Positions 1 through 37,228 of a stretch of DNA of 37,770 nt are shown one piece after another. Each line of letters opens with the position of its first letter. Positions within the stretch are counted from its first letter, which is position 1. Position numbers and translations under genes: made by a program. The stretch is taken from UHGV virus genome UHGV-1359486; one strand, written 5' to 3'. Below the pieces are notes generated by a model. That model was not told the DNA's origin, did not search any database, and saw only the letters and a list, made by a program, of their open reading frames with translations. The stretch is from a virus.

Positions 1-1055
1 TGCACGACAAATTAAAGGCCGAACAATGGCGAATTGAGCAGGTAGGGGACTTCCCGGACTATACCTATGAGGAAGCCTGCCTGCGGTGGCTTGAGGAAAA
101 AGCAGATAAAAAATCGATAGAGGATGATAAGAACTTTATCACTTTCTGGCTTGAGTACTTCGAGGGTGTCCGGCTGAAGGATATAACCGAGAATGCCATT
201 TACAAGATCATCAGTAAGATGACAAACAAGCATGCTGAAAACTGCTGGAGAAGGAAAGCTGACACAGCAAAAAGGAAGGGAAAGGAGGTGCCGCTGTTTA
301 CATCGAAGCCTGTCACTACGGCTACAAAGGCGCGATACCTTTCTTTCATTAAGGCGCTACTCAGAGCGGCAGAAAGAGAATGGAAGTGGATAGAAAAGTC
401 ACCTGTGATAAAAATCCCATCTATTCGTGATCGGAGAGTCCGGTGGCTTGAGCCTGTCGAGGCGAAAAGACTGATTGATGAATGTCCTGAGCCATTAAAG
501 TCAGTCGTCAGGTTCGCTCTGTCAACCGGCCTGCGTCGTTCGAACATACTTAACCTTGAGTGGCAGCAGATAGACATGCAGCGGAAAGTGGCATGGATTT
601 ACCCTGAAGACAGTAAATCAGGTAAAGCGATCGGTGTAGCCCTGAACGATACCGCATGCAGGGTTTTGCGCAGCCAGATTGGTCGCCATCACAAATGGGT
701 ATTTGTCCACACTGATCCGTCATACAGGAATGACGGAACACCGGTTGCGGCAGTAAGAAAGATGAGGCCGGATTCTAATACAGCATGGAGAGCAGCATTA
801 AAAAGAGCCGGTATCGATGATTTCCGTTTCCATGACCTGAGACACACCTGGGCAAGCTGGCTGATCCAGTCTGGCGTTCCGCTTTCAGTGTTACAGGAAA
901 TGGGCGGGTGGGAGTCGATAGAAATGGTGCGCAGATATGCCCATCTGGCACCAAATCATCTTACCGAACATGCGAAGCAAATAGATGCCATTTTTGACAG
1001 TTACGTCCCAAATACGTCCCAAGGTGAAAAACTGGCATCGGGAGATAATCACTAA
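1..1055 (+). CDS. int: Tyrosine integrase, 3' part (continues from 37662..37770)
   Basis: Open from position 3 without start; C-terminal catalytic motifs HDLRHTWAS and MVRRYAHL (R...HxxR...Y); close to P22 Int as recalled. Confidence 0.9.
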
Positions 1056-1598: not shown

Positions 1599-2663
1599 AT
1601 GATAACAAAAGAACAGAAAATTGACTGCATAAATTATGCAAAAGCAATAGGAATAATTGCGGTTGTTATTGGTCATTATAAAAATGACATGTTCGATGTA
1701 TTCAAACCTTATATGTATCATATGCCTTTATTTTTCTTTATTGGTGGCATTTTACATAACGATAAAAGAAGCATTACAAATAGCATTCTAACCACCATAA
1801 AAAAACATCATTTTTATATAGTGGTTAATTATATACTAATTGGGATATTTATAATTGCAGTAAATAACTCATTTGGAACGTCATTGAGAAACCCATTTGA
1901 TGAATCAATCATTGGAACGATAAAGTATGCGGTGACATGGAATTTCCATTCCAATACGCTGTTTTTGGTTGCATGGTTTTTGTTTGCATACTCTTTAATA
2001 TTTGTTTTATTTTCAGTGATGATTAACAAAATAACAAAAGGTAAATTACCTATATTTCTAATTTCAATTTTTCTTGGTGTTATTGGTTACTACGTGGCGG
2101 TTGAGATGTATGCTAAAAGTGAATTGTTTTATCTTAACTTATTAAGTCAGGTTTTGGTTGGGTCAATGTTTTATGGCATAGGAGTATCAATAAAGGATAG
2201 GTTTTTTTCATTGCTCAACCCATTCGCCTTTGTTGTTATATTAATGGCAATACTGACATTGGTTAAACTTGATTATATAGGAACGATAGGAATGTCGTGG
2301 AGTAATTACAATAAAGGGTTGTTTAACCTATTGTTTACACCAGTGGCATGTATTTATTGTGTATTTTTTGTTTCTTACTCATTATCAAAATCAATCGAAT
2401 TCAAGACACTATTGCTCATCGGAATGAATACAAAATCAATAATGTCATATCACTTAGCGGCATTTGTTATATTAGATATATTTTTCAGTTACATTGGGAA
2501 GTATGAAATATCTAACATAAGCGCATTGAATCATTTCAATACATACAAGGTATGGGTTATTTACGTTTTATTTTCAATATTCGCCTCAATCTATTGCGAG
2601 AAGATATTTATACATCTGAAAGATAAGTCGCTGCTAATCGCAAAAAGAAAACTATTGGATTAA
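1599..2663 (+). CDS. Acyltransferase family 3 integral membrane protein (O-antigen acetyltransferase-like; probable lysogenic conversion gene)
   Basis: 354 aa, about 10 predicted TM helices, N-terminal motif INYAKAIGIIAVVIGHY typical of acyltransferase_3; very AT-rich; same position as oac in Sf6-type phages. Confidence 0.6.
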   Translation: MITKEQKIDCINYAKAIGIIAVVIGHYKNDMFDVFKPYMYHMPLFFFIGGILHNDKRSITNSILTTIKKHHFYIVVNYILIGIFIIAVNNSFGTSLRNPFDESIIGTIKYAVTWNFHSNTLFLVAWFLFAYSLIFVLFSVMINKITKGKLPIFLISIFLGVIGYYVAVEMYAKSELFYLNLLSQVLVGSMFYGIGVSIKDRFFSLLNPFAFVVILMAILTLVKLDYIGTIGMSWSNYNKGLFNLLFTPVACIYCVFFVSYSLSKSIEFKTLLLIGMNTKSIMSYHLAAFVILDIFFSYIGKYEISNISALNHFNTYKVWVIYVLFSIFASIYCEKIFIHLKDKSLLIAKRKLLD

Positions 2664-2689: not shown

Positions 2690-4621
2690 TTAGATGCATA
2701 TAATTTCAATAAAAAACATCATTCCTGATGTTAATTCATTTGGTTTTACTTTATTACCACTTGTATCAATTAAGTTAAAGTAAACCTCTCCTGACCCAGC
2801 TGATGAGTTGTTGTAAAATGGAGCCAGTGAAATTCCGTTTGCGTTGTTGCAACTGGTACACATCACATATGGGCGTTGATACTTAGTGTATCCAGGCATA
2901 AATTTGACCTTAAAGGCGTATGGATCGCCAGGAACGCTTTCTGCAGAATAAACTCCTGACGCAATATAGAATGAATTATCTACAACGATACCTGACCCGC
3001 CCTGACTAACAAGGCACCCAATTCTCCTGTTTAGTGAGGCGACACTTCCCTCTGACTTGCGCCACTGGTATGAGTTATTTCTTGAAATGACTGGTGTCGC
3101 CATATTTACATATTTAAGTGGTATGTTTCCGCTAATATCATTATCGCCAGCATCAACCCCTTTTATTGTTATTATATTATCTTGCTTCTCAGGATATCCG
3201 GCATAGTCCCAACAGAAAAAATCAATTCTATTTTGCCCTGCACCATCAATAAATAGAGAGCTAACGGCATCACCTCCCCACTGCTGTACATAGTCACATT
3301 GAATTTCAGCTATTTGTGTGTTGTATGGATATGCATCCGTAGTTATAGGGACGCACTTGATGGTTATGCCATGCAAAGCCCCCTCAACCCTTATGTTTCT
3401 AAAAATACATGACGTTATCCATGATCCACCATCTGAACCCGCTGTGCCTTCCGCTGCAACATCCTCCTTTTTAGGCTGCACGGCGAGTACCTGTAATGCA
3501 TACTCACCAAACCCTAAAGTCAGGTCAGTGAACTTCCCCCAACAAATGCTATTCCATCTGCGGCGGTCGTCAACATACTGGCCTCCGTCCTTGCTTAAAT
3601 CAGCACGAAGCATGAGTGAAGTACCGGTCTTGTCTTTCGAGCAACCAACCAGGTTAAGGTTACTGATCGTTATGTTGCGGAGGTTATTTTTACCGATAAC
3701 CAATGCAACAGAATGATTCCATTCTGTTAGGTCACTATCGACGGCTATTCTCGCCTTATTACCATGCCCTTCTGTGCTGAATTCAATATTGTCATTTTCA
3801 AACACAAACCAATCGTTACGTAGTGAGCGGTTAATTAACTGAGCTCCGCCAGAAAAACGGAAGTTTTTCTTAACCTTGACCTGGCTGTTGCAATCAAATG
3901 ACATTTTAGGGATCAGGATGGTGTTTACTGCTGCAATTTCCTGAAGGCCACCCAGAATACTTCCGATATCAGTATTCTCCTGAGCGCCAACAGAAAGGAT
4001 ATCAGCGCCGTTTGTAACATCCAATGTTGCAGTCAGTCCGTTATCCAGGATGACGTTTACCAGCGTGTCTGGCTGATTATTTGTGATTGCATAAATGCCC
4101 TCACCACCATCACCAGGAGAGTAATATCCGCGAGTTTTGACCGTAGCCCCAAGTGGAAGTGATGTATCCGCTACCATTGCAGCGACATTATCGAAGACGC
4201 GGAGATAGTTTTCAGTCAGGCCACCTATCATTTTATATCCATCGTCCCCGCCTAACTCCCCCCTTATCCTTACATCAAATTGATCAGGGTCATACTTCAA
4301 AACATTAGGATAATAGAACTGCTGAGCTCCGTATGAATCATACACCGCCATAGAATGGCCTTGTATGGTAACGAACTTCGCAATCTGCCCGTTATATACC
4401 GGATAGCCAGCTTGGTTAATAATCAGAGGCTGAGTTGCGGGAATGTGCGTTCCATCTTCGTTTTCAAGATACACCTGAATTTGGTTTTCCGGTATGGTGG
4501 GATCGGTGTCAATTTTCCCGATGAAGATTTTCCCGTTACTCGCCGCCTGGAATTTGCGTGCAAGCGTGAACAACTGCGAAGGCATGCTCACTACAACATT
4601 AGGAATAATTTGTTCTGACAT
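2690..4621 (-). CDS. Tailspike protein (P22 gp9-type N-terminal head-binding domain + divergent beta-helix receptor-binding domain)
   Basis: N-terminus [13 protein letters not shown]...[12 protein letters not shown]...[10 protein letters not shown] matches P22-family tailspike head-binding domain; ATG at 4619-4621 with GGAG 6 nt upstream (track ORF starts at TTG 4633). Confidence 0.85.
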
Positions 4622-4689
4622 TGCTTTCTCCAAGCGTGAGTAGTCGCATCAGACTATGATGTGATTTTTTAATTTAATAGGAGTGTGAT

Positions 4690-4805: not shown

Positions 4806-6917
4806 TCACTTGGACTTTTCTCCCTGCATCACTGCAGTGGTGGCCTGTGATATCTGAGAGATAAGGCGATCATATGCTGTGCTACCCTTTGGGGTGTTCG
4901 CCAACCTAAGCATCATGTTACGTATCGGCTTGCTTTCATATACTCTAGCAAGCCCCCCATAAGTGGCAAACGCGGCAGTTAAAGCACCGCCATTCCCCAG
5001 CACGTCAGCTGCCACTCCCGTCGGTATACCAACCTGCAAAAGCTCCTGCCCGGTAGGGGTAACCGTGCCAGCTCTGGATGCCCTTTGTGTCTGCTCAAGG
5101 TATTTTTTCAGCCCATTCAGATATTGCTTCTCGTTACCTTTAAACAGGATACCTGTCTGCGCTGAAAGCCGGTTTATTTCATTCAGGAACTTCTCCGGAC
5201 TGCCGCCTGATTTCTCATAGGCTTTGCCGATAACAGACGCTCTTGCCGCATTCCTTCCGCGGCTGTCGAGTGATCTGTATAGTTGCTGAACCTCACTTTT
5301 CTTATTACTGAAAAGGAGGTTGTTAGCAACTTCCGGCGTGAGTTCGCCTTTCTGCAGAACGGATTTCAGGCGCGTATTATTCACCACCTGAGCCTCATGA
5401 GCGTATGCCGCATTCGCCTGGCGATAACGATCTGCCACTCTGGCACCGAGGTTATCAGACACAGACTGATTGATATCTTTTGACATAGCGTCATATACAC
5501 GGTTAACCGCCCCTTGAGACTGAGAAGGCCACACCATGCGGTCACCTTTCACATCCTGTCTGAACTGCGTTCTCAGGTCTCTCATCAGGCTAAAATCAGC
5601 GCCTTTCACCAACTCATCACGATAAGTCTGTAATTTATTGATGGTTTGAGTGTCAGCCGCGCCGCCAAGCCGCGCCAGTCGACTCATTTCATTATCGATA
5701 GCTGTGATGGCTTGTGTCGGGTTTATGGTGCCTACCGACTGCATTGCGGAGTCTACTTCAGACATGCGCTTACCTGCCGCCTGTTTAACCTTGCTGGTCT
5801 GTCTCTGAAGGCTCTGAACCACTTCATCAGGTGATGGAGCGGCAAAGCTTTCTGAGTATTCCTGAATCAGTTTGCTCCTTGCTTCCTGCTGATTTCTGCG
5901 TAGTGAGCCAGTGCCGGTAACGGGTATTTTCTCAGCCAGTGCCTGAGCTGAACGACCAGAGAATGTGCCTGGCTGAACAGCATCAGTGGTCATCAGCGGT
6001 GCGTTATTAGCATCGGCAAACTTAACTGCCTCTGCCGCCTCCGGTGACATCTTTCCTTTTATTGCCCGAGCCGCAGCGCCGACAATATTTTCAAATGCCT
6101 TACCGCCGGTGCCTAGAACACCAGATAATCCAACCTGAAGCGGGTCAATATCAGTTCCGCCCATGTAACTTGTGGTGCCCTGAATTAACGCATCCGTACC
6201 GGCTGCGCGAAGACCAGCGCTGACCAATCCGCCTGCACGTCCAGCCGGTGTATATGATGCTGCCAGAGCCGCGCCAGATGCCACATCCTCGGGAGATAGG
6301 CCGGGTTTGTTAAGGGAATACCTTCTTTCAGGTAAAGAAACTATTTTTTCACCATTCTCCCCATCAATCACCACTCCGCCGCTTTCTTTTGCCACCCTTT
6401 CTGCCATTTCTGCGAGCTCTGGTATCCATCCCATTTCAACAACTCGTTTATTCGCAGGCAGGGTAACAATAGCGTTTCCTTTCACATCATAGGAAATTGT
6501 CGCCCCCATGTTTTTCAGCATGATTTCCTGATCCTGCTGATTACCCATCATCTGAGCCCAGGCAACTTTGGCGGCATCTTTTGTCATGGACTTCATTTCT
6601 GGCGCATCAGATATTGATGGAAGGTTTTCAATTTCTGGTGTCATGCGGCTCTCGCCGGTAACCATGTCTTTCACATTAGCCCAAAATCCTTCCGGCTGCT
6701 GCGCTTCCGGCTGCTGCACCGGAGCAGGCTGCTGCTCTTGCTGCACTGTCTCAACCGGATATGCAGTGTAAAACTGCTGCCTTGCCTCATTCACAGCTTC
6801 ACCCGCCCGCGGGGCAACAACGTCATTAAAGTATTGCTCCTGCGCTTCAGCTCTTTGCTGAGGTGAAAGAGCTTGATATTGCTGAGAGGCAATAACGTCT
6901 TTCCATGCCTTAGCCAT
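4806..6917 (-). CDS. Ejection (internal virion) protein, P22 gp16-like
   Basis: 703 aa; last of the 7-20-16 ejection-protein trio by synteny; start overlaps gp20 stop by 1 nt. Confidence 0.75.
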   Translation of the reverse strand: MAKAWKDVIASQQYQALSPQQRAEAQEQYFNDVVAPRAGEAVNEARQQFYTAYPVETVQQEQQPAPVQQPEAQQPEGFWANVKDMVTGESRMTPEIENLPSISDAPEMKSMTKDAAKVAWAQMMGNQQDQEIMLKNMGATISYDVKGNAIVTLPANKRVVEMGWIPELAEMAERVAKESGGVVIDGENGEKIVSLPERRYSLNKPGLSPEDVASGAALAASYTPAGRAGGLVSAGLRAAGTDALIQGTTSYMGGTDIDPLQVGLSGVLGTGGKAFENIVGAAARAIKGKMSPEAAEAVKFADANNAPLMTTDAVQPGTFSGRSAQALAEKIPVTGTGSLRRNQQEARSKLIQEYSESFAAPSPDEVVQSLQRQTSKVKQAAGKRMSEVDSAMQSVGTINPTQAITAIDNEMSRLARLGGAADTQTINKLQTYRDELVKGADFSLMRDLRTQFRQDVKGDRMVWPSQSQGAVNRVYDAMSKDINQSVSDNLGARVADRYRQANAAYAHEAQVVNNTRLKSVLQKGELTPEVANNLLFSNKKSEVQQLYRSLDSRGRNAARASVIGKAYEKSGGSPEKFLNEINRLSAQTGILFKGNEKQYLNGLKKYLEQTQRASRAGTVTPTGQELLQVGIPTGVAADVLGNGGALTAAFATYGGLARVYESKPIRNMMLRLANTPKGSTAYDRLISQISQATTAVMQGEKSK

Positions 6918-19582: not shown

Positions 19583-19609
19583 TAAAAAAGCCCCGCTAGT
19601 TAGCGAGGC
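19583..19609 (-). terminator. Candidate rho-independent terminator overlapping the 3' end of Rz
   Basis: Minus-strand 9-bp stem (one G-U pair) followed by UUUUUU. Confidence 0.35.
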
Positions 19610-20048
19610 ACTGAGTCTTTATGTAGTCATGGAGCCCACGAATTTGGGCATCCATTGTTTCAAGCTGCTTGCGGAGATGAAAATAATCCGGTTCAGCGTC
19701 TCTCGCCAGGGTGGCGGGTCTGCCATCATCCATGCTGGAGGTGGTATCGGTTCCGCTTTTGGGGCATTCAGCGCGGACGTACACCCGCTTGTTGCCAGAC
19801 TTAACAGCATCACGCAGGCTATCAATTTCAGTTTTGGCATTGGTTAACTCCTGCGTGTACATAGTGTCGAGTTCGTGAAGTGACTGAATGCGGGATTTGT
19901 AGCCTTTGTTGATGGCGACCTGCTCTGCAAACTGAGAGGAAAGCAGCTGATAGTTATCTTTCAAGCCACCATACAGATGCAGGAGAAGCAGCAGACTGAC
20001 AGCCAGTATTCCGCAAATGCCTAGCCATATCTTTGTTGCGGTGCTCAT
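19596..20048 (-). CDS. i-spanin (Rz-like)
   Basis: 150 aa, N-terminal TM helix then coiled-coil region; directly after endolysin. Confidence 0.8.
   Translation of the reverse strand: MSTATKIWLGICGILAVSLLLLLHLYGGLKDNYQLLSSQFAEQVAINKGYKSRIQSLHELDTMYTQELTNAKTEIDSLRDAVKSGNKRVYVRAECPKSGTDTTSSMDDGRPATLARDAEPDYFHLRKQLETMDAQIRGLHDYIKTQCLAN
19619..19840 (-). CDS. o-spanin (Rz1-like lipoprotein) embedded in the Rz gene in another frame
   Basis: Signal peptide with lipobox-like ATSGC, Pro-rich mature part; fully nested within Rz. Confidence 0.65.
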   Translation of the reverse strand: MPKLKLIACVMLLSLATSGCTSALNAPKAEPIPPPAWMMADPPPWRETLNRIIFISASSLKQWMPKFVGSMTT

Positions 20049-20049
20049 A

Positions 20050-20382
20050 TCACTTAACGCCGTTGTGTTCTAACGAGTAGTGATTGCCGTCATTGAACCT
20101 ACCGCCCCACGTACCCCCGATGGACTCCCAATATTCACCGAGTGGTTTGTGGTCACTTGATGCCGTCAGATATTTGCCATCTTTGAACAGGTTGAAATCA
20201 ACCGCCAGCCGCTGGGTATGCAGGCTGTTTTTAATTCCAGCGCCGGATTTGGCATTTAGTGCAGCCTGCTCCGGTGTTCGGTACGCCTCTGAGAACGTCA
20301 GATCATAGCCGTTGTCGTACGCGAAGATAATTAAGTCCGCAATCATGCGGGTAAACTTGCGTTGCTTTTCACCTAATGTCAT
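20050..20382 (-). CDS. Endolysin, peptidase M15-type (L-alanyl-D-glutamate/D-Ala-D-Ala peptidase family)
   Basis: 110 aa; SLHTQRLAVD (H-x6-D) and DGNHYSLEH zinc-ligand pattern; ATGA overlap with holin. Confidence 0.7.
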   Translation of the reverse strand: MTLGEKQRKFTRMIADLIIFAYDNGYDLTFSEAYRTPEQAALNAKSGAGIKNSLHTQRLAVDFNLFKDGKYLTASSDHKPLGEYWESIGGTWGGRFNDGNHYSLEHNGVK

Positions 20383-20687
20383 TTTTTACCGCCTGAGAAT
20401 TTTGACCAAAAGAAGTCCAGTGCAAAAGAACCCATAGCGCCACACATACCGGCAGCAAATACCGTGTAATAAAACGAAGCGTTGAGTTCCACAGAAAGAA
20501 GCCCACCCATCAGGCCGGAGAACCCGGAAACCATCATCTGCATGATTGCCCCCAGCCAGCTCCAGCGGTAGCCGTTGCGTTTGTTGTCAATAATGTACCG
20601 GGCTAAGCCACCGTAAAGGGATATGGCAAATATGACCCCCCATGCTGTACCGGTGACTTTCAGGTCTTTGTCATCCATCTTTGCCAT
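20379..20687 (-). CDS. Holin, three TM helices, dual-start motif MAKM
   Basis: 102 aa; three hydrophobic segments, charged C-terminus; strong RBS. Confidence 0.75.
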   Translation of the reverse strand: MAKMDDKDLKVTGTAWGVIFAISLYGGLARYIIDNKRNGYRWSWLGAIMQMMVSGFSGLMGGLLSVELNASFYYTVFAAGMCGAMGSFALDFFWSKFSGGKK

Positions 20688-20873
20688 ACCGCCCCCTTCC
20701 GGAGGATTTAGTTAATAGGGTGCCGCGCACAGTATCTCTGCGCTGATTACGTTTGTTTGTTCAGGATTCTGTGGCGGCGTGTTTGTTTATTAGTTGGATT
20801 GGATGCTGCATCGATGAATGAGTTATATTCAGCAATGCCGATTAATATCACCACCCACATAAAGCAGGTAAAA

Positions 20874-21332
20874 ATGACTGAAAATAAAGAAAGAGCGACT
20901 AAATATTATATCGAGATAGTTAAGCCAACTATCGATGAGTTTATGAATGACAAATGCAGTATTAGAAAAGGAATGCTGGCATCAATCACCATGAATCACA
21001 TAATTGATTACCTATATGACGACAGTTCAAAAAGCGATGGTTTCAGATTTTCGTCCTCTGAATGCGACGCTCTGAACACCATTAAAGATGTCTGCAATGC
21101 ATCTAAACACTGTGAGTTAACAAGAGGAAACCCATCAATAAAATCATCAGACCAAATAACACAAGATGATGTTCCAGGATTATTTTCCGCTCCGTTTGGA
21201 ACTGGTGGATTTCTTGAAGCAAGTTATGTTTTCGTTAAACTTAACGATGAAATTAATGGCGATAAATTCAAATGCTTGCCGAATATAATAAAAGAGGCCG
21301 AAGATTACTGGGATAAACGACTTCCGTCATAA
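20874..21332 (+). CDS. Moron: unknown protein antisense to the late operon (152 aa from ATG 20874; alternatives ATG 20814, TTG 20757)
   Basis: Uninterrupted ORF, AGGT 5 nt upstream of ATG, markedly AT-rich relative to flanks; no recognisable motif. Confidence 0.55.
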   Translation: MTENKERATKYYIEIVKPTIDEFMNDKCSIRKGMLASITMNHIIDYLYDDSSKSDGFRFSSSECDALNTIKDVCNASKHCELTRGNPSIKSSDQITQDDVPGLFSAPFGTGGFLEASYVFVKLNDEINGDKFKCLPNIIKEAEDYWDKRLPS

Positions 21333-21340
21333 AATCACAA

Positions 21341-21364
21341 AATAAAAAGCCCTCCGAAGAGGGC
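21341..21364 (-). terminator. tR'-like strong rho-independent terminator (hairpin shared with the end of the plus-strand moron)
   Basis: GCCCTC-CGAA-GAGGGC hairpin; minus strand followed by UUUUUAUUUU; about 165 nt downstream of PR'. Confidence 0.6.
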
Positions 21365-21509
21365 TGTTATGCATGCTTCGACACAAGGCCAGTTTCCCGC
21401 CGGTGTGCGCCGTTTACTTACTTCCTCGCTCTGCATTCTAAAAAGCCCCGCATTTGGCGAGGATTATAATTCAGGTTAAGCGACTTAAGAGTCATGTAGA
21501 TCAACTTAC

Positions 21510-21544
21510 CTGATAAGTATTGTCCATTTGGTCATTACTGTCAA
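21510..21544 (-). promoter_or_regulatory. Late promoter PR' (probable Q-utilisation region)
   Basis: Minus strand TTGACA - 17 nt - AATACT, overlapping the Q stop codon. Confidence 0.5.
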
Positions 21545-22044
21545 TAGCAAAGTTCAGTAATTTTGCGTACTTTACCCACACGTTTGCGACTGTTCATTAC
21601 ATTTCGCAGAGGTTCGTATAGCAACCACTGAGCCGCTTTGAGTTTTTCGTCAACCTCACGGCGACATGTCCGCATAGATGGAACCTTTATTTTCCCTCCT
21701 GAGCGCGTGTTCATTTTGCGTGGTTTTGCAACGCCGTGATAGTAAGATGCAATCGACAGCTTGGATGAGCCGTGAGCATAGTAACTGAGCAGTATTCCGT
21801 AAGCCTGTGTGTCAGTGGCGATAACTGAATCTACGACCTGAGAAATCAACATTCCGTCATCGTCATTGCACATTGGTCTTGTTGGGTTTTTATCCGGCTC
21901 TACAGTCTGCATGAACTTATAAATCATGTTGATCATGCGAATATCAATCCGGCCTGAATATACCCACGCACCCCACAGCTCAAGCCACTGGTTAAGCCAG
22001 TCATACTGCTCTTTGGTGAGTTCCTTTTCTCCGATATAGCTCAT
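21541..22044 (-). CDS. Late-gene antiterminator Q (P22 gp23-type)
   Basis: 167 aa; WGAW and CNDDDGMLI motifs recalled from P22-type Q; directly upstream of PR'. Confidence 0.7.
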   Translation of the reverse strand: MSYIGEKELTKEQYDWLNQWLELWGAWVYSGRIDIRMINMIYKFMQTVEPDKNPTRPMCNDDDGMLISQVVDSVIATDTQAYGILLSYYAHGSSKLSIASYYHGVAKPRKMNTRSGGKIKVPSMRTCRREVDEKLKAAQWLLYEPLRNVMNSRKRVGKVRKITELCY

Positions 22045-22244
22045 CTTACCTCCGGCAAAACAGTGTGTTTGTGGCAGTCGTACCTGGTGCTGAACGCCTT
22101 CCTCAGTAGCAACTCCCTGCTTTCGCCGACTTCCTGTCGAACCTTGAGATATCCGTCTCTTTTCTGTGTGACTACGTGGTGATGCTTTGTTTCACGCCTG
22201 AGCCACCTGGCTTCTTCGATTGCTGCCGCTATGTCTGTGAACAT
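22041..22244 (-). CDS. nin-region small protein (67 aa)
   Basis: ATGA-coupled to Q; overlaps NinG end. Confidence 0.5.
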   Translation of the reverse strand: MFTDIAAAIEEARWLRRETKHHHVVTQKRDGYLKVRQEVGESRELLLRKAFSTRYDCHKHTVLPEVR

Positions 22245-22828
22245 GATTTCAGCTCCTTCAGTTTCCGCCGGTACTCATCCCGGATCCGTTCGTAGTCCTC
22301 TCGTTTCCATTTCGGCAACTCATGCACACCCATCAGGCGGTCGAAGCGTTCCTGGCCGATTTTTTCAATCAGTGCCGGCCGGTAGTTTTCGATGTTTCCG
22401 GAGAGATGGTTATTACACGCGGAACATTGTTTATGTACGTTATCTTCATCAAATCGCAGTTCAGGCATTGCCTTTGTGGTTCGATAGTGCCCGGCGTGAT
22501 ACTGCCCTGCGTGGTGACGGCCGCAGCTGATGCACGGAAGGTCTTTATCCCGTTCACGGATGTATGCGTTGAATGCGGTCTGTGCTTGTTTTGCGAAATA
22601 TGAGAGGGGTTTTACTGCTAACTTGCGGATTTTGAGTTTGTCTTTTTCTTCACGTTTTTTCTGCTGCTGCTCCTTTTTTAGTTTGGCCTCGGCCTTTTCC
22701 CTTTCCCTGCTTCGTCGCTTTATTGCCAACTCAGCACCATGCTCCGGACAGCACCACCATTCGTTACTGAATTTCGGGTGAAACCATGCCCGGCATATCA
22801 GGCACTTTCGCCGAGATTGTTTTGCCAC
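22229..22828 (-). CDS. ninG: NinG/Rap recombination-associated nuclease
   Basis: 199 aa, GTG start; WFHP, CxxC pairs, DLPCISCG, AGHYRT, HKQCxxCN as in lambda NinG. Confidence 0.85.
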   Translation of the reverse strand: MAKQSRRKCLICRAWFHPKFSNEWWCCPEHGAELAIKRRSREREKAEAKLKKEQQQKKREEKDKLKIRKLAVKPLSYFAKQAQTAFNAYIRERDKDLPCISCGRHHAGQYHAGHYRTTKAMPELRFDEDNVHKQCSACNNHLSGNIENYRPALIEKIGQERFDRLMGVHELPKWKREDYERIRDEYRRKLKELKSCSQT

Positions 22829-31764: not shown

Positions 31765-31991
31765 ACGCATACGCAGCACAGGATGCTCAGGAAGAGCGAC
31801 GGCTGGAGCATGCAGCATGGCAGGATGCCGTGGACATGGAAGTTAGCGAACTGGCAACGGATGCTTTTAATAAACTCCCTCAGCGCCTTCTGGATGAAGT
31901 AAGCGAGGACCTGCAAGAGGCGATATGGAAATCACTTTTTGACGTTATTGGCAATATCAGGAGTTCGTATGCAGCCAGGTATCTACGATGA
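31761..31991 (+). CDS. Acidic helical protein (76 aa) immediately upstream of the recombination nuclease
   Basis: AGGAGG RBS; acidic composition. Confidence 0.5.
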   Translation: MNAYAAQDAQEERRLEHAAWQDAVDMEVSELATDAFNKLPQRLLDEVSEDLQEAIWKSLFDVIGNIRSSYAARYLR

Positions 31992-32787
31992 CATCAGCAA
32001 TGATGACTATCACAACGGCCCCGGGATAAGTAAATCGCAGCTGGACCTTATCGAACAATCACCGGCTGACTTTATCTGGCAACGGAATGCCCCGGTGGAT
32101 GAGGAAAAAATAAAGGCTCTGGATTTCGGGACCGCTGTTCACTGCCTTTTGCTTGAGCCTGATGAGTTCAATAACCGGTACAGGATAGGGCCGGAAGTAA
32201 ACAGACGCACATCCGCAGGGAAGCAGGAAGAAAAGGAATTCTTCGAAATGTGCGAAAAAGAAGGAATCACGCCAATCACCCATGACGACAACAGGAAGTT
32301 GATGATCATGCGGGATAGTGCCATGGCCCACCCTATCGCCAAATGGTGCCTTGAAGCTGAAGGAAAAGCCGAGAGCAGCATTTACTGGAATGACAAGGAA
32401 ACGGACATTCTTTGCCGGTGCAGGCCGGACAAACTGATAGGACAACACGGATGGATTGTCGATGTGAAAAGCACCGCGGACATGTCCCGCTTCGAACGCG
32501 CTTTTTACGATATGCGCTATCACGTTCAGGACGCGTTTTACTCAGACGGATATAAGGACCTGTCCGGAGAGTTACCGGTGTTCGTATTTCTCGCGGTCAG
32601 CACAACAATCGACTGCGGAAGATATCCGGTCCGTGTATTCATTATGGATGATGTGGCAAAGGATGCCGGACGGTCCGCATACAAACAAAATCTCAGAACA
32701 TACACCGAGTGCATTAAAACGGATGAATGGCCCGGTCTGAGAACACTATCACTGCCACGCTACGCAAAGGAACTGAGAAATGAGTAA
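31969..32787 (+). CDS. RecE-type exonuclease (nuclease domain only; PD-(D/E)XK)
   Basis: GIYDDISNDDYHNGPGISKSQL, SSIYWND, CRCRPDKL, GWIVDVKSTAD, YHVQDAFYSDGY match the C-terminal nuclease domain of E. coli RecE as recalled. Confidence 0.8.
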   Translation: MQPGIYDDISNDDYHNGPGISKSQLDLIEQSPADFIWQRNAPVDEEKIKALDFGTAVHCLLLEPDEFNNRYRIGPEVNRRTSAGKQEEKEFFEMCEKEGITPITHDDNRKLMIMRDSAMAHPIAKWCLEAEGKAESSIYWNDKETDILCRCRPDKLIGQHGWIVDVKSTADMSRFERAFYDMRYHVQDAFYSDGYKDLSGELPVFVFLAVSTTIDCGRYPVRVFIMDDVAKDAGRSAYKQNLRTYTECIKTDEWPGLRTLSLPRYAKELRNE

Positions 32788-33589
32788 CCCACCAATCGCA
32801 CAGGCGGACCTGCAAAAAGCACAAGGGACCGCGGTTAAAGAAAAAACAAAAGACCAGCAGCTAATCCAGTTCATAAACCAGCCAGGCATGAAAGCTCAAC
32901 TAGCAGCCGCCCTGCCGAGGCATATAACACCGGACCGCATGATCAGGATTGTCACCACCGAGATACGGAAAACTCCATCACTGGCAACCTGTGACATGCA
33001 AAGCTTTATCGGCGCTGTTGTTCAGTGCTCGCAACTTGGCCTTGAGCCAGGTAACGCATTGGGCCACGCCTACCTCCTTCCGTTCGGCAATGGTAAAGCG
33101 GCATCAGGGCAATCAAATATTCAGTTAATTATCGGATATCGCGGCATGATCGACCTCGCCCGCCGATCCGGTCAAATTATCAGTATATCGGCCCGCACTG
33201 TGCGCGAAGGTGACAGTTTTCATTTTGAATATGGCTTAAACGAGGACCTTACACACGTACCCGGCGAAAATGACTCGGGCCCAATCACCCACGTTTATGC
33301 AGTGGCCCGCCTGAAAGAAGGTGGTGTTCAGTTTGAGGTTATGTCTTTCTCTCAGATTGAGAAGGTCCGCGATTCAAGCAAGGCCGGTAAAAATGGTCCA
33401 TGGGTATCTCACTGGGAAGAAATGGCGAAAAAGACCGTCATCCGCCGCCTGTTCAAATATCTGCCGGTATCTATCGAGATGCAGAGGGCCGTCATTCTGG
33501 ATGAAAAAGCAGAGGCCAACGTGGACCAGGAGCATGCATCTATTTTTGAAGGTGAGTACGAAACTGTATCGCCGGAATCCGCGGGGTAA
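32780..33589 (+). CDS. recT: RecT-family single-strand annealing protein
   Basis: 269 aa; LLPFG, IGYRGMIDLARRSG motifs; coupled downstream of the nuclease. Confidence 0.85.
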   Translation: MSNPPIAQADLQKAQGTAVKEKTKDQQLIQFINQPGMKAQLAAALPRHITPDRMIRIVTTEIRKTPSLATCDMQSFIGAVVQCSQLGLEPGNALGHAYLLPFGNGKAASGQSNIQLIIGYRGMIDLARRSGQIISISARTVREGDSFHFEYGLNEDLTHVPGENDSGPITHVYAVARLKEGGVQFEVMSFSQIEKVRDSSKAGKNGPWVSHWEEMAKKTVIRRLFKYLPVSIEMQRAVILDEKAEANVDQEHASIFEGEYETVSPESAG

Positions 33590-34968: not shown

Positions 34969-35232
34969 TCGCGGCCAATCGACTTAATAGCAGATATCAC
35001 GGATGAGTATATCGCTAGGCATTTTGAAGGGACGAACTACGGGCACACCAACTATCGGGACATCGTTGGCAAAGGATGTCTGAATGCTATGGCCGGATAT
35101 CACAACGGATATACCACACAGTGCATATTGATAAAAATGGGGCTGACCACAGAGAAATTACGGCTGACAAAGCGCGGTCGTGAATTTCTGTTCTGGCATT
35201 TTAACTATCAACCGGTTAATGGGCGGAAATAA
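34960..35232 (+). CDS. Hypothetical protein (90 aa)
   Basis: ATGA-coupled to methyltransferase. Confidence 0.5.
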   Translation: MNMSRPIDLIADITDEYIARHFEGTNYGHTNYRDIVGKGCLNAMAGYHNGYTTQCILIKMGLTTEKLRLTKRGREFLFWHFNYQPVNGRK

Positions 35233-35239
35233 TTCATCG

Positions 35240-35255
35240 CAGAGGAATGAATATG
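35240..35255. repeat. 16-bp direct repeat CAGAGGAATGAATATG, copy 2
   Basis: Identical to 34953-34968. Confidence 0.9.
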
Positions 35256-35537
35256 GCAATAGTTCAGTATTACGTTGCGTGTAAAAAAGATGAAGACCCG
35301 GCATCCGTCACTGAGATTTTTCGCTGTGAATTATCAGACGACCATAATTTCAGTGCTGATGATGACGACTTCGAATTTTGTATAGAAACATGCGCAGAAG
35401 ATTTTCACGACAGATGCGACGGGTGGGAGCGTCATTGGCCTTTATTATTCATGCTGTGGATTGATGGGAAATATATCGGCATGTTTGAAGTTGAACGCGA
35501 ATATGAGCCAACATTTTCAGCCAACAAAGTTAATTAA
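35247..35537 (+). CDS. Acidic hypothetical protein (96 aa)
   Basis: D/E-rich (SDDHNFSADDDDFEF). Confidence 0.5.
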   Translation: MNMAIVQYYVACKKDEDPASVTEIFRCELSDDHNFSADDDDFEFCIETCAEDFHDRCDGWERHWPLLFMLWIDGKYIGMFEVEREYEPTFSANKVN

Positions 35538-35555
35538 GCAGATTCAGGAGGGGTG

Positions 35556-35849
35556 ATGGATAGTAATAATATAGAATTTTTACAGCCAGATGATTTAAAT
35601 AATCTGAAACGGTTCAATGAAAATTGCGAAGATAGTCAAGATTACGACGTACCAAAAGAAAAAATGCACCGCATGGCTAAATTGGGAGTTGTGCGTCGTC
35701 ACAGTAGAAACTATTACAGCATAACATCATTCGGAATGTATTTACTTAATCAAGGTGACGAACTATATAAATTGCCACTTAAAACGCAGTCTGATTACGA
35801 TGCAGAATTCCGATTTAATTTAGCCAATAAAATTCGAGGCTCATCATGA
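35556..35849 (+). CDS. Hypothetical protein (97 aa from ATG; track starts at GTG 35553)
   Basis: AGGAGG RBS; AT-rich. Confidence 0.5.
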   Translation: MDSNNIEFLQPDDLNNLKRFNENCEDSQDYDVPKEKMHRMAKLGVVRRHSRNYYSITSFGMYLLNQGDELYKLPLKTQSDYDAEFRFNLANKIRGSS

Positions 35850-36139
35850 TGGGTATATCACGACAGCAGTTTGAGGAATACATTAAATTGCATACCGACT
35901 CAGCAGGGCTGGAGCTGAAATTAAAAAAAGCAAATAACGGATTAAATTACGCTAACCGGGATGTCGATTTAATGTGGATTGGCTGGCAGGCATCGCGTGA
36001 AATCTTAACTGTTGAATTGCCTTTATCTCTTCACGTAAGAGCCTATGACTATTACACGGACGGCTATAACAGTGGCGTGGATTACTGTGAAGTTATATTG
36101 GAATCTGCGGGAATAAAAGTAATAAGAACCGACCAATAA
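35846..36139 (+). CDS. Hypothetical protein (97 aa)
   Basis: ATGA coupling. Confidence 0.5.
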   Translation: MMGISRQQFEEYIKLHTDSAGLELKLKKANNGLNYANRDVDLMWIGWQASREILTVELPLSLHVRAYDYYTDGYNSGVDYCEVILESAGIKVIRTDQ

Positions 36140-36306
36140 AATCATCGGGGAATAACAATGACAATCGGATTTGTATTACTACTGGTAATGCACGGTGCTG
36201 CTGTGCCTGTTACCGATGATATTTATACGCTCGAGGAATGTGAGAGCCGCGCAGTGCAGGTAATGGCTGTGCGGAATGTTGAATTAGTGTGTGCGGAGGT
36301 TTTCAG

Positions 36307-36675
36307 ATGAGACAAATTAAAATAAGCTCTGGCGCGTGGCAAAAAGATTTAGAAATGGTTGTCACTGTTATCGATGAAGATAAATTTAAAACTCAGTGTG
36401 AGCAAGTTAATAAATTTTATTGTGACGCAGAGTATAGAGCTAAGAAACACGGAAGCCATGAAAAAGCGGGGTTCGCCATGTTCTGCGCTGAGTGTTTTCA
36501 ACAAATGGCATTCAATAACTTTAAAGACGAAGAATGGCTGACTGAGCAATTCGACTGGTCTAAAGATAAAGGAATTGAAGGGTATCCTTCGTTAGATGAT
36601 ATGGGCATTCGAATCGATGAAATTGAGCCATGGTTTATTGATTACGACGAAATGGAAATTACAGGATGGTGTTAA
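36307..36675 (+). CDS. Hypothetical protein (122 aa from ATG; track 36289)
   Basis: GGAGG RBS 8 nt upstream. Confidence 0.5.
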   Translation: MRQIKISSGAWQKDLEMVVTVIDEDKFKTQCEQVNKFYCDAEYRAKKHGSHEKAGFAMFCAECFQQMAFNNFKDEEWLTEQFDWSKDKGIEGYPSLDDMGIRIDEIEPWFIDYDEMEITGWC

Positions 36676-37056
36676 ATGAACAAATATAGTGACAAATCAG
36701 ACTTTGAGATTAATAAGGCTGTGGCTGTTAATATTAATGGCACTGACTCTGTTTTAGAAAAGTTCGGTAGAATATATATCAGTGATGGCGATAGAGGTGC
36801 GATGGTGAGCTTCTCCCCATGCAACAACCCAGCGGACGCATGGCCTATTATTTTAAAAAACAGAATCAGCATTATCATTCCAGGGAATGAATATAGTGAT
36901 GGTTACAGCACTCCATTTGCTGCAAGTGGATTTGATGATGTTTCTCATATAACCAGAAATACATATTATACAGATGAGGAATCATTCAATCAAAACCCAC
37001 TACGCGCAGCAATGGAAGTATTCCTGATGATGAAAGAGGCGGAGAATGGTAAATAG
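36676..37056 (+). CDS. Hypothetical protein (126 aa)
   Basis: ORF with ATG. Confidence 0.5.
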   Translation: MNKYSDKSDFEINKAVAVNINGTDSVLEKFGRIYISDGDRGAMVSFSPCNNPADAWPIILKNRISIIIPGNEYSDGYSTPFAASGFDDVSHITRNTYYTDEESFNQNPLRAAMEVFLMMKEAENGK

Positions 37057-37228
37057 TTACCACTGCGAAGCATGCAACAAGCCACTTAATGAGGATGAGC
37101 TGCTTTATTATGGATTCACCTGTGAAAAATGTGAACGTCATTTCATTACTGAGCATGAAGGAAATAAATTCAAAACCGCAATATCGCTCATCAGGCTCTA
37201 TTTCAGAAAGGTAATTTACTCAGCGTAG
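37046..37228 (+). CDS. Small zinc-ribbon protein (60 aa)
   Basis: CEAC...CEKC motif pairs. Confidence 0.45.
   Translation: MVNSYHCEACNKPLNEDELLYYGFTCEKCERHFITEHEGNKFKTAISLIRLYFRKVIYSA

Follow-up and report, generated by a model that had tools for sequence, protein, structure and literature searches.

Among the described systems closest to the locus reported here, HepS (STM14_3211) of the Salmonella prophage Gifsy-1 is a solo HEPN abortive-infection protein that is encoded without a partner at an accessory site; it is constitutively expressed and remains non-toxic until a phage tail-tip protein binds to it through a beta-sheet, upon which it cuts tRNA anticodon loops (PMC13043305). HepS carries R100-x4-H105, and the RX4-6H motif served as the inclusion criterion of its family (PMC13043305). 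The same motif, Rx4-6H, defines the HEPN superfamily as a whole, which includes HepT/DUF86, the C-terminal domain of kanamycin nucleotidyltransferase (KNTase), HI0074, Las1 and Csm6 (PMC3710099). As for position in the genome, the nearest parallels are nmpC/lc of the phages DLP12 and PA-2 and gogA of Gifsy-1, each being a single antisense gene between the Q region and the holin. Such extra transcription units in a phage operon are called morons in the sense of Hendrix and colleagues. Here we describe a gene of this kind in the virus genome UHGV-1359486, a stretch of 37,770 nt that is referred to below as the window. The gene (20874..21332, + strand) encodes a 152-aa soluble protein of the family phrog_33893, lies antisense to the late operon and is almost certainly a genuine, horizontally acquired single-gene moron.

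An antisense cargo gene in the interval from Q to the holin is an architecture already known, and the moron occupies the same place in the same orientation as nmpC/lc and gogA. However, nmpC/lc is an outer-membrane porin and gogA a type III effector protease, whereas the moron product is an unrelated cytoplasmic protein. In the Gifsy-1 record used for comparison (L118, NC_010392) gogA was located at 31917..32603, antisense and directly upstream of the holin.

The original prediction had placed a 152-aa open reading frame (ORF) exactly between the late terminator hairpin and the holin, on the strand opposite to the late operon, and the coordinates confirm this arrangement. On one side of the gene lie the antiterminator Q (22044..21541, - strand; PF06530, E = 1e-22) and the late terminator, and on the other side the LydA-type holin (20687..20379, - strand; PF16083, E = 8e-25), which is the first gene of the lysis cassette. 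All genes flanking the moron ORF are on the - strand and constitute a lambdoid late region. The ORF is also more AT-rich than its flanks, as had been predicted (GC content 0.36 versus 0.48-0.50): the measured value was 0.359, with 0.31 at third codon positions, compared to 0.48 for the window, 0.495 for the holin, 0.456 for Q and about 0.50 for the lysis genes, which places the ORF at the 3.4th percentile of windows of the same size.

The moron status of the gene, formerly inferred, is now shown by an insertion/replacement polymorphism with sharp junctions. We fetched 80 viral contigs encoding the same Q family for comparison, and the moron gene was present in two of these 80 loci. The closest among the others were L036 and L038, in which the Q DNA is 97% identical to that of the window and the holin is near-identical (94.6-99% at the nucleotide level). 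Homology between these contigs and the window extends over 22062..21344 and resumes at 20780, and 20781..21343 is replaced in them by about 299 bp of unrelated DNA without a credible ORF. Because L036 and L038 match the window only outside 20781..21343, the inserted unit measures about 563 bp; it comprises, on the + strand, the conserved upstream blocks, the ribosome-binding site and the ORF, and prophages that share the Q and the holin lack it. In L045 only about 157 bp are found at the position of the moron, and in L041 (4205-4441) and L044 (4451-4687) the site is taken by a different small ORF in the sense orientation. The product of the latter is a basic, Cys-rich protein of 78 aa (MRSKAIRRHHEKRLKSKRSKYYNAGH...CGCWMCANHRK).

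The loci that carry the gene share approximately 20690..21440 with the window, and beyond these limits their holins, endolysins and upstream genes differ. Thus, in Morganella and Moellerella the neighbours of the cassette include holins of three Pfam families, endolysins of the M15_4, CHAP and lysozyme types, and, upstream, either one of two Q families or an N6/N4 methylase. Where a locus has another Q type, its similarity to the window stops at 21439-21448. Close by is the first hairpin of the late leader (21446..21462, - strand), the terminator-like CCUCGCC-AAAUG-CGGGG followed by CUUUUUAGAA, where the Q-specific module borders the shared segment. An antisense ORF of at least 100 aa was observed at the Q-holin site in 8 of 73 loci; two of these are the moron gene and two an IS200-like transposase, and most of the remaining ones coincide in part with a small sense ORF, of which they seem to be shadows. 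Antisense cargo at this site is therefore uncommon in this lineage. The two transposase genes (MKNETNIRRGRHCVFLMHVHLVF...), in L079 and L080, are situated 350-920 bp downstream of Q.

The open frame extends over 20757..21332 on the + strand (stop codon at 21330-21332) and offers three candidate starts, TTG 20757, ATG 20814 and ATG 20874. The start supported by the comparison is ATG 20874, which yields 152 aa, and the phrog_33893 profile begins at the N-terminus of this version. The starts at TTG 20757 (191 aa) and ATG 20814 (173 aa) were rejected for lack of conservation of the extension: in three relatives a 1-nt indel has occurred between the 20814-type ATG and the ATG at 20874, and the Moellerella copy contains an in-frame TAG seven codons upstream of the 20874-type ATG. 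Accordingly, the 173-aa alternative of the original prediction had to be abandoned. Its proposal that the gene has a ribosome-binding site of its own was upheld, since the Shine-Dalgarno-like GCAGGT at 20864..20869 (+ strand) places AGG 5 nt before ATG 20874 and the AGG is kept in all relatives. When 20688..21340 was shuffled 2000 times with dinucleotide composition preserved, the longest ORF had a mean of 66 and a maximum of 159 codons and reached at least 152 codons in 0.05% of the shuffles, as against the 191 codons observed. We found seven proteins that are 77-94% identical to the moron product, and all of them are intact; disruption of the frame was looked for in the relatives and was seen in none. 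The pairwise ratios of nonsynonymous to synonymous substitution rates (dN/dS) were 0.18-0.33, with dS of 0.33-0.45. Judged by these rates, the moron ORF is under purifying selection.

The stop codon of the moron gene is 15 nt from the hairpin of the late terminator tR', which reads AGCCCUC-UUCG-GAGGGCU and is followed by UUUUUAUUUUG in the terminator call (21338..21365, - strand; hairpin 21365..21348). On the - strand the hairpin continues into TTTTTATTTTG, whereas on the + strand GUUAUGCAUGCUU comes after it, i.e. no U-tract, and the terminator scan reported no + strand terminator at this hairpin. Since the U-tract is present on the - strand only, what might look like a bidirectional terminator is merely a shared hairpin. 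Moreover, the hairpin and the first five Ts belong to the phage backbone and are kept in relatives without the moron, so that the moron has no terminator of its own. The original prediction had the gene end at a hairpin that also works as the terminator of the - strand: the latter part holds, but the hairpin is borne by the backbone and is not the gene's own terminator. In the late leader upstream of tR', a 36-aa ORF (21369..21479) that is called by some gene finders was rejected for want of support.

The candidate promoter and leader of the moron gene are contained in non-coding blocks upstream of it (20793..20850, + strand) that are invariant in all six aligned copies, even in the Moellerella copy of 78% identity. 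These blocks are GTTGGATT at 20793-20800, the -10-like TATATTC at 20824-20830, and GATTAATATCA at 20840-20850, which contains TAATAT. Going by this conservation, the gene may well have its own promoter within the blocks. The late operon is transcribed in the opposite direction, and the candidate late promoter PR' (TTGACA-17-AATACT, 21544..21516, - strand) matches the consensus at 10 of 12 positions and overlaps the end of Q. The promoter scan revealed no promoter-like site on the - strand from 21340 to 20688. Because of this lack of a - strand promoter-like site between tR' and the holin, late transcripts must cross the moron antisense, as the original prediction had proposed. Taken with the orientation of the gene, the arrangement of these signals suggests that the moron is probably expressed mainly in the lysogen.

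The moron product matches phrog_33893, its own family, which is annotated as of 'unknown function' and conveys no functional information; the match is full-length (E = 2.8e-24, residues 9-150). The same profile was matched over its whole extent by all 50 diverse family members used for the alignment, the best E being 1e-115; no other PHROGs family was matched. When 1.84 billion representatives were searched exhaustively with a profile, 359 clusters (at 50% identity) were obtained at E <= 1e-3, and a scan of the genome collection with a sub-alignment gave 10 loci. Nearly all members are stand-alone proteins of 140-170 aa, and the relatives are conserved at 25-40% identity across hundreds of clusters in varied settings and orientations. 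No match to Pfam, NCBIfam or PADLOC was obtained for the moron product or the 50 relatives, the source names in the 50-member alignment are 'hypothetical protein' throughout, and Pfam recognized no extra domains in 10 longer, fused-looking members. Sequence searches of the PDB with two profiles likewise gave no match, and the literature offered nothing specific on the phrog_33893 identifier or on morons of Morganella P22-like phages, a paper by Tai dealing with a different site. A confident match to a housekeeping or structural family, which was also looked for, did not emerge. Weak matches to DUF5868, NAD-kinase and PDC-S05 were rejected, as they lie in that upstream portion of the 191-aa version which is not translated (to which those to PDC-S05 are confined) or score far below the cut-off. 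Thus, phrog_33893 is catalogued yet uncharacterised, and it lies outside every curated domain or defence library that was searched.

Within the 50-member alignment H79 is invariant, and P18, R31, A36, D45 and K78 are conserved in at least 90% of the sequences. The core motif D-V-[AC]-[ND]-A-[ST]-K-H is followed by a G-x-F-x-A-P-F-G loop. The moron product contains no hydrophobic segment and no signal peptide. Its isoelectric point (pI) is 4.9; a reading of the protein as an extremely acidic DNA mimic was rejected, because the family has a median pI of 5.9 and a range of 4.7-8.9.

When modelled by AlphaFold2 with the 50-member alignment, the protein obtained a predicted local distance difference test score of 86.8 and a predicted template modelling score of 0.81. 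The model has helices at residues 2-25, 30-54 (kinked), 65-78 and 135-149 and short strands at 95-97, 119-123 and 131-134, so the predicted fold is a four-helix bundle with a beta-containing insert of about 55 residues. Foldseek searches against the PDB and BFVD returned no significant match. Among the non-significant ones there were hints of a HEPN-like fold, namely the C-terminal domains of KNTase, ANT(4') and LinB and three HepT toxins, and further AF0298, YutE, Las1 (four entries), Csm6, ST0689, HI0074 and TTHA0636; these were mixed with HPt domains and with generic or designed bundles. An hhalign comparison with a KNTase sequence gave a probability of 0.1. Helix 2 of the model begins with R31 and helix 3 ends with K78-H79, and in an antiparallel bundle the two sites should lie at the same end. 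The model is consistent with a HEPN-like scaffold and with possible homology to HEPN proteins, with a conserved polar set that differs from the canonical one. In comparison with the HEPN superfamily, phrog_33893 lacks the motif, a Pfam match and an MNT partner, and its conserved R31, D45 and K78-H79 are on different helices.

We hypothesize that HepS of Gifsy-1 is the best functional analogue of the moron product. Like HepS, the members of phrog_33893 are shorter than 250 aa and stand alone without a conserved partner, and many of them are found on prophages. Unlike HepS as it has been described, they are devoid of RX4-6H. Furthermore, no PDB chain shows sequence similarity to phrog_33893, the presence of a HepS entry in the PDB copy used being unconfirmed. 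Seven annotated candidates examined in the LT2 Gifsy-1 record included none with Rx4-6H near residue 100, and HepS was not identified among them. Since the motif that delimits the HepS family is missing and no similarity to solved structures was detected, it is a hypothesis that the moron product works like HepS, and the stronger statement that it is a HepS is unsupported.

Relatives of the moron gene occur on temperate elements of various kinds. The lambdoid prophages of Morganella and Moellerella carry the gene antisense and immediately upstream of the holin, in a P2-like prophage a relative is placed at the end, after ogr, in an HP1/P2-like prophage after the tail-fibre cluster, and in an Acinetobacter oleivorans prophage antisense within an operon. 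Another relative is carried by an Acinetobacter element of which there are two deposits, one as a 'phage' of 74.6 kb and one as a ParA plasmid of 75 kb. In Acinetobacter vB_IME_Ab2712 (labelled Schitoviridae, a label that is unverified) the gene was located at 3974-4462 of our locus L001, and in the A. baumannii plasmid NZ_CP110465.1 (L116), which encodes ParA and a serine recombinase, at 4974-5462. Because a ParA/serine-recombinase plasmid of the same size matches this region, vB_IME_Ab2712 is probably a phage-plasmid and not a virulent N4-like phage. Other relatives adjoin integrases, transposases, a PIN toxin, a KAP NTPase or Fic. No neighbour gene was shared among the more than 20 relative loci that were examined. 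Also, no adjacent co-oriented gene for an MNT antitoxin was present in the window, nor was such an antitoxin found among the Pfam-annotated neighbours. Only one of 50,697 GenBank phage records carries a phrog_33893 member.

On circumstantial grounds, the moron product may tentatively be assigned an anti-phage function as a cytoplasmic factor expressed in the lysogen. These grounds, which are also those for the exclusion, defence or conversion role proposed in the original prediction, are the location of the family at accessory sites on several temperate elements, the lack of a partner gene, the hints of a HEPN-like fold and the weak presence of defence genes in the neighbourhood. That the protein would act by a HEPN-like nuclease mechanism is doubtful. 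A number of observations weigh against a HEPN-like defence protein that is expressed from its own promoter. Rx4-6H is absent from phrog_33893, as there is no R 4-6 residues before H79; the positions concerned are occupied by V/A, C/A and N/D, and position 71, which is 8 residues before H79 and would give R-x7-H spacing, is K in the moron product and variable across the family. Neither the product nor the 50 members matched HEPN entries in Pfam, NCBIfam or the PDB, and none had a significant match among the PADLOC-DB v2 defence models. The signal from defence genes nearby is also weak and is given without a baseline: 5 of 83 neighbour proteins at 16 diverse loci matched defence models (Cas6, SoFic, PDC-S49, PDC-S04 and mad2). 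Chromosomal singletons are found next to housekeeping or metabolic genes, for example between nrdA and polA in Methylobacter, and others adjoin TctC or aldehyde dehydrogenase. In Dickeya oryzae (L034 4830..7495) a relative follows arsR-arsB-arsC at a distance of 35 bp and with the same orientation, as though it belonged to the ars operon. Finally, a scan for consensus sigma-70 promoters found no site upstream of the moron gene and no good -35 element.

A somewhat unlikely alternative is that the gene encodes an accessory protein which is expressed in the lysogen and does not act on phages, serving host physiology, stress or regulation, for instance as a nucleotide- or protein-binding helical bundle, which would amount to lysogenic conversion in a broad sense. 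However, the genomic contexts show no tie to any single pathway, and recurrence at accessory sites of unrelated temperate phages fits conflict between phages better. In addition, the product has neither a signal peptide nor a membrane segment, and it is for this reason not a surface-conversion protein. It is still less likely that the protein serves the phage itself in counter-defence or host takeover, e.g. by nucleotide sequestration or inhibition of a host nuclease, during infection or constitutively. A small soluble phage protein without a partner, with members on several phage types including a phage-plasmid, would suit such a role, as would the mildly acidic product (its pI of 4.9 compared with the family median of 5.9) and a conserved basic cluster that could bind a nucleotide. 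Nevertheless, the gene opposes the late operon and no early promoter is nearby, so that lytic transcription of the phage itself would keep it silent; moreover, a single member among 50,697 sequenced phage isolates and the existence of chromosomal singletons argue against this role.

Two further explanations deny the protein a leading part. The unit could be mainly cis-acting: with no U-tract or terminator call on the + strand after the hairpin, convergent transcription may continue through the late leader and PR' as far as the 3' end of Q and damp leaky late expression (of the holin) in the lysogen, the protein being secondary. Although in Morganellaceae the unit directly precedes a holin in every case, we consider this improbable, given that the protein is under purifying selection and keeps 25-40% identity across hundreds of clusters in differing settings and orientations, and that close relatives do without the unit. 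Alternatively, the ORF could have arisen by chance in an AT-rich spacer, and its annotation has indeed never gone beyond 'hypothetical protein'. This explanation has a negligible probability and is refuted by the length of the ORF (p of about 0.0005 in comparison with the shuffles), by dN/dS of 0.18-0.33 and by a deep family with a confident predicted fold.

As we envisage it, the moron gene would be transcribed from its own upstream blocks, with TATATT or TAATAT as the -10-like element, while the prophage is repressed. If the anti-phage reading is followed, the product would work alone in the lysogen's cytoplasm as a factor of the exclusion or abortive-infection type and would stay inactive until it is triggered by an infecting phage. 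The polar cluster of R31 and K78-H79 on a HEPN-like scaffold might bind or cut RNA or a nucleotide. Upon induction of the prophage, RNA polymerase antiterminated by Q would pass tR' and cross the moron gene antisense, and convergent transcription together with fully complementary RNA could shut the gene down while its own phage grows lytically. In its most elaborate form the model would make phrog_33893 a new group of partner-less, prophage-borne abortive-infection effectors with a rewired site (R31 and K78-H79 in place of Rx4-6H), a beta insert acting as the trigger sensor, and antisense self-silencing; taken as a whole, this combination is speculative and unlikely. If it were true, silencing by antisense read-through would provide self-immunity without an immunity protein.

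Temperate phages hold much of the undiscovered immune repertoire of bacteria at a few accessory sites. The moron constitutes a minimal test case in this respect, being a cassette of 563 bp that has defined junctions, counterparts in nature that are isogenic but 'empty', and a family of about 360 clusters on several types of temperate element, for which a confident model offers a small set of invariant residues that can be mutated (R31, D45, K78 and H79). Should the gene prove to act in defence, a HEPN-like family without the canonical motif would be gained, together with a case of self-immunity through transcriptional architecture. Should it not, it would be evidence, together with nmpC and gogA, for the Q-holin gap as a general cargo slot.

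At the left junction of the moron there is a 75-nt element of the holin leader (20706..20780, - strand; ACGCCGCCACAGAATCC...GCGCGGCACCCTATTAACTAAAT), which recurs with 98-100% identity in related prophages just ahead of several different holin genes and is better conserved than the surrounding genes. On the late RNA it takes part in a long-range stem (minimum free energy -30.2, z = -3.1). The element may be an RNA element of the holin leader or a recombination junction.

The remaining genes around the moron are also typical of a lambdoid late region. NinG (22828..22229, - strand) is a neighbour in this region, and the holin is followed by the M15_4 endolysin (20382..20050, - strand) and Rz (20048..19596, - strand), within which an embedded ORF with a lipobox-like N-terminus (19840..19619) was read as Rz1. 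The structural genes have about 75% DNA identity to P22-like phages, and the closest relatives of the moron locus are from Morganella morganii and Moellerella wisconsensis. The identity of the structural genes and the origin of the close relatives indicate that the window is a P22-like prophage of a Morganella-type host. When searched by megablast, neither 50,697 phages nor 5,426 E. coli genomes gave a match to the locus, and an Rfam scan of the whole window was equally negative.

A second, still more AT-rich moron (GC content down to 0.27) was noted elsewhere in the window, an Acyl_transf_3 gene at 1599..2663 (+ strand) between the integrase (219..1055, + strand) and the tailspike (2690..4633, - strand). 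The gap between integrase and tailspike is the classical position of O-antigen acetylase conversion genes in P22-like phages. In the early region ARAGORN called a tRNA-Gly(UCC) of an unusual length of 97 nt (32908..33004, - strand), for which there was no Rfam tRNA match at the gathering score. The right end of the window (35163..37200) has a low GC content (0.36-0.39) and contains several small ORFs on the + strand.

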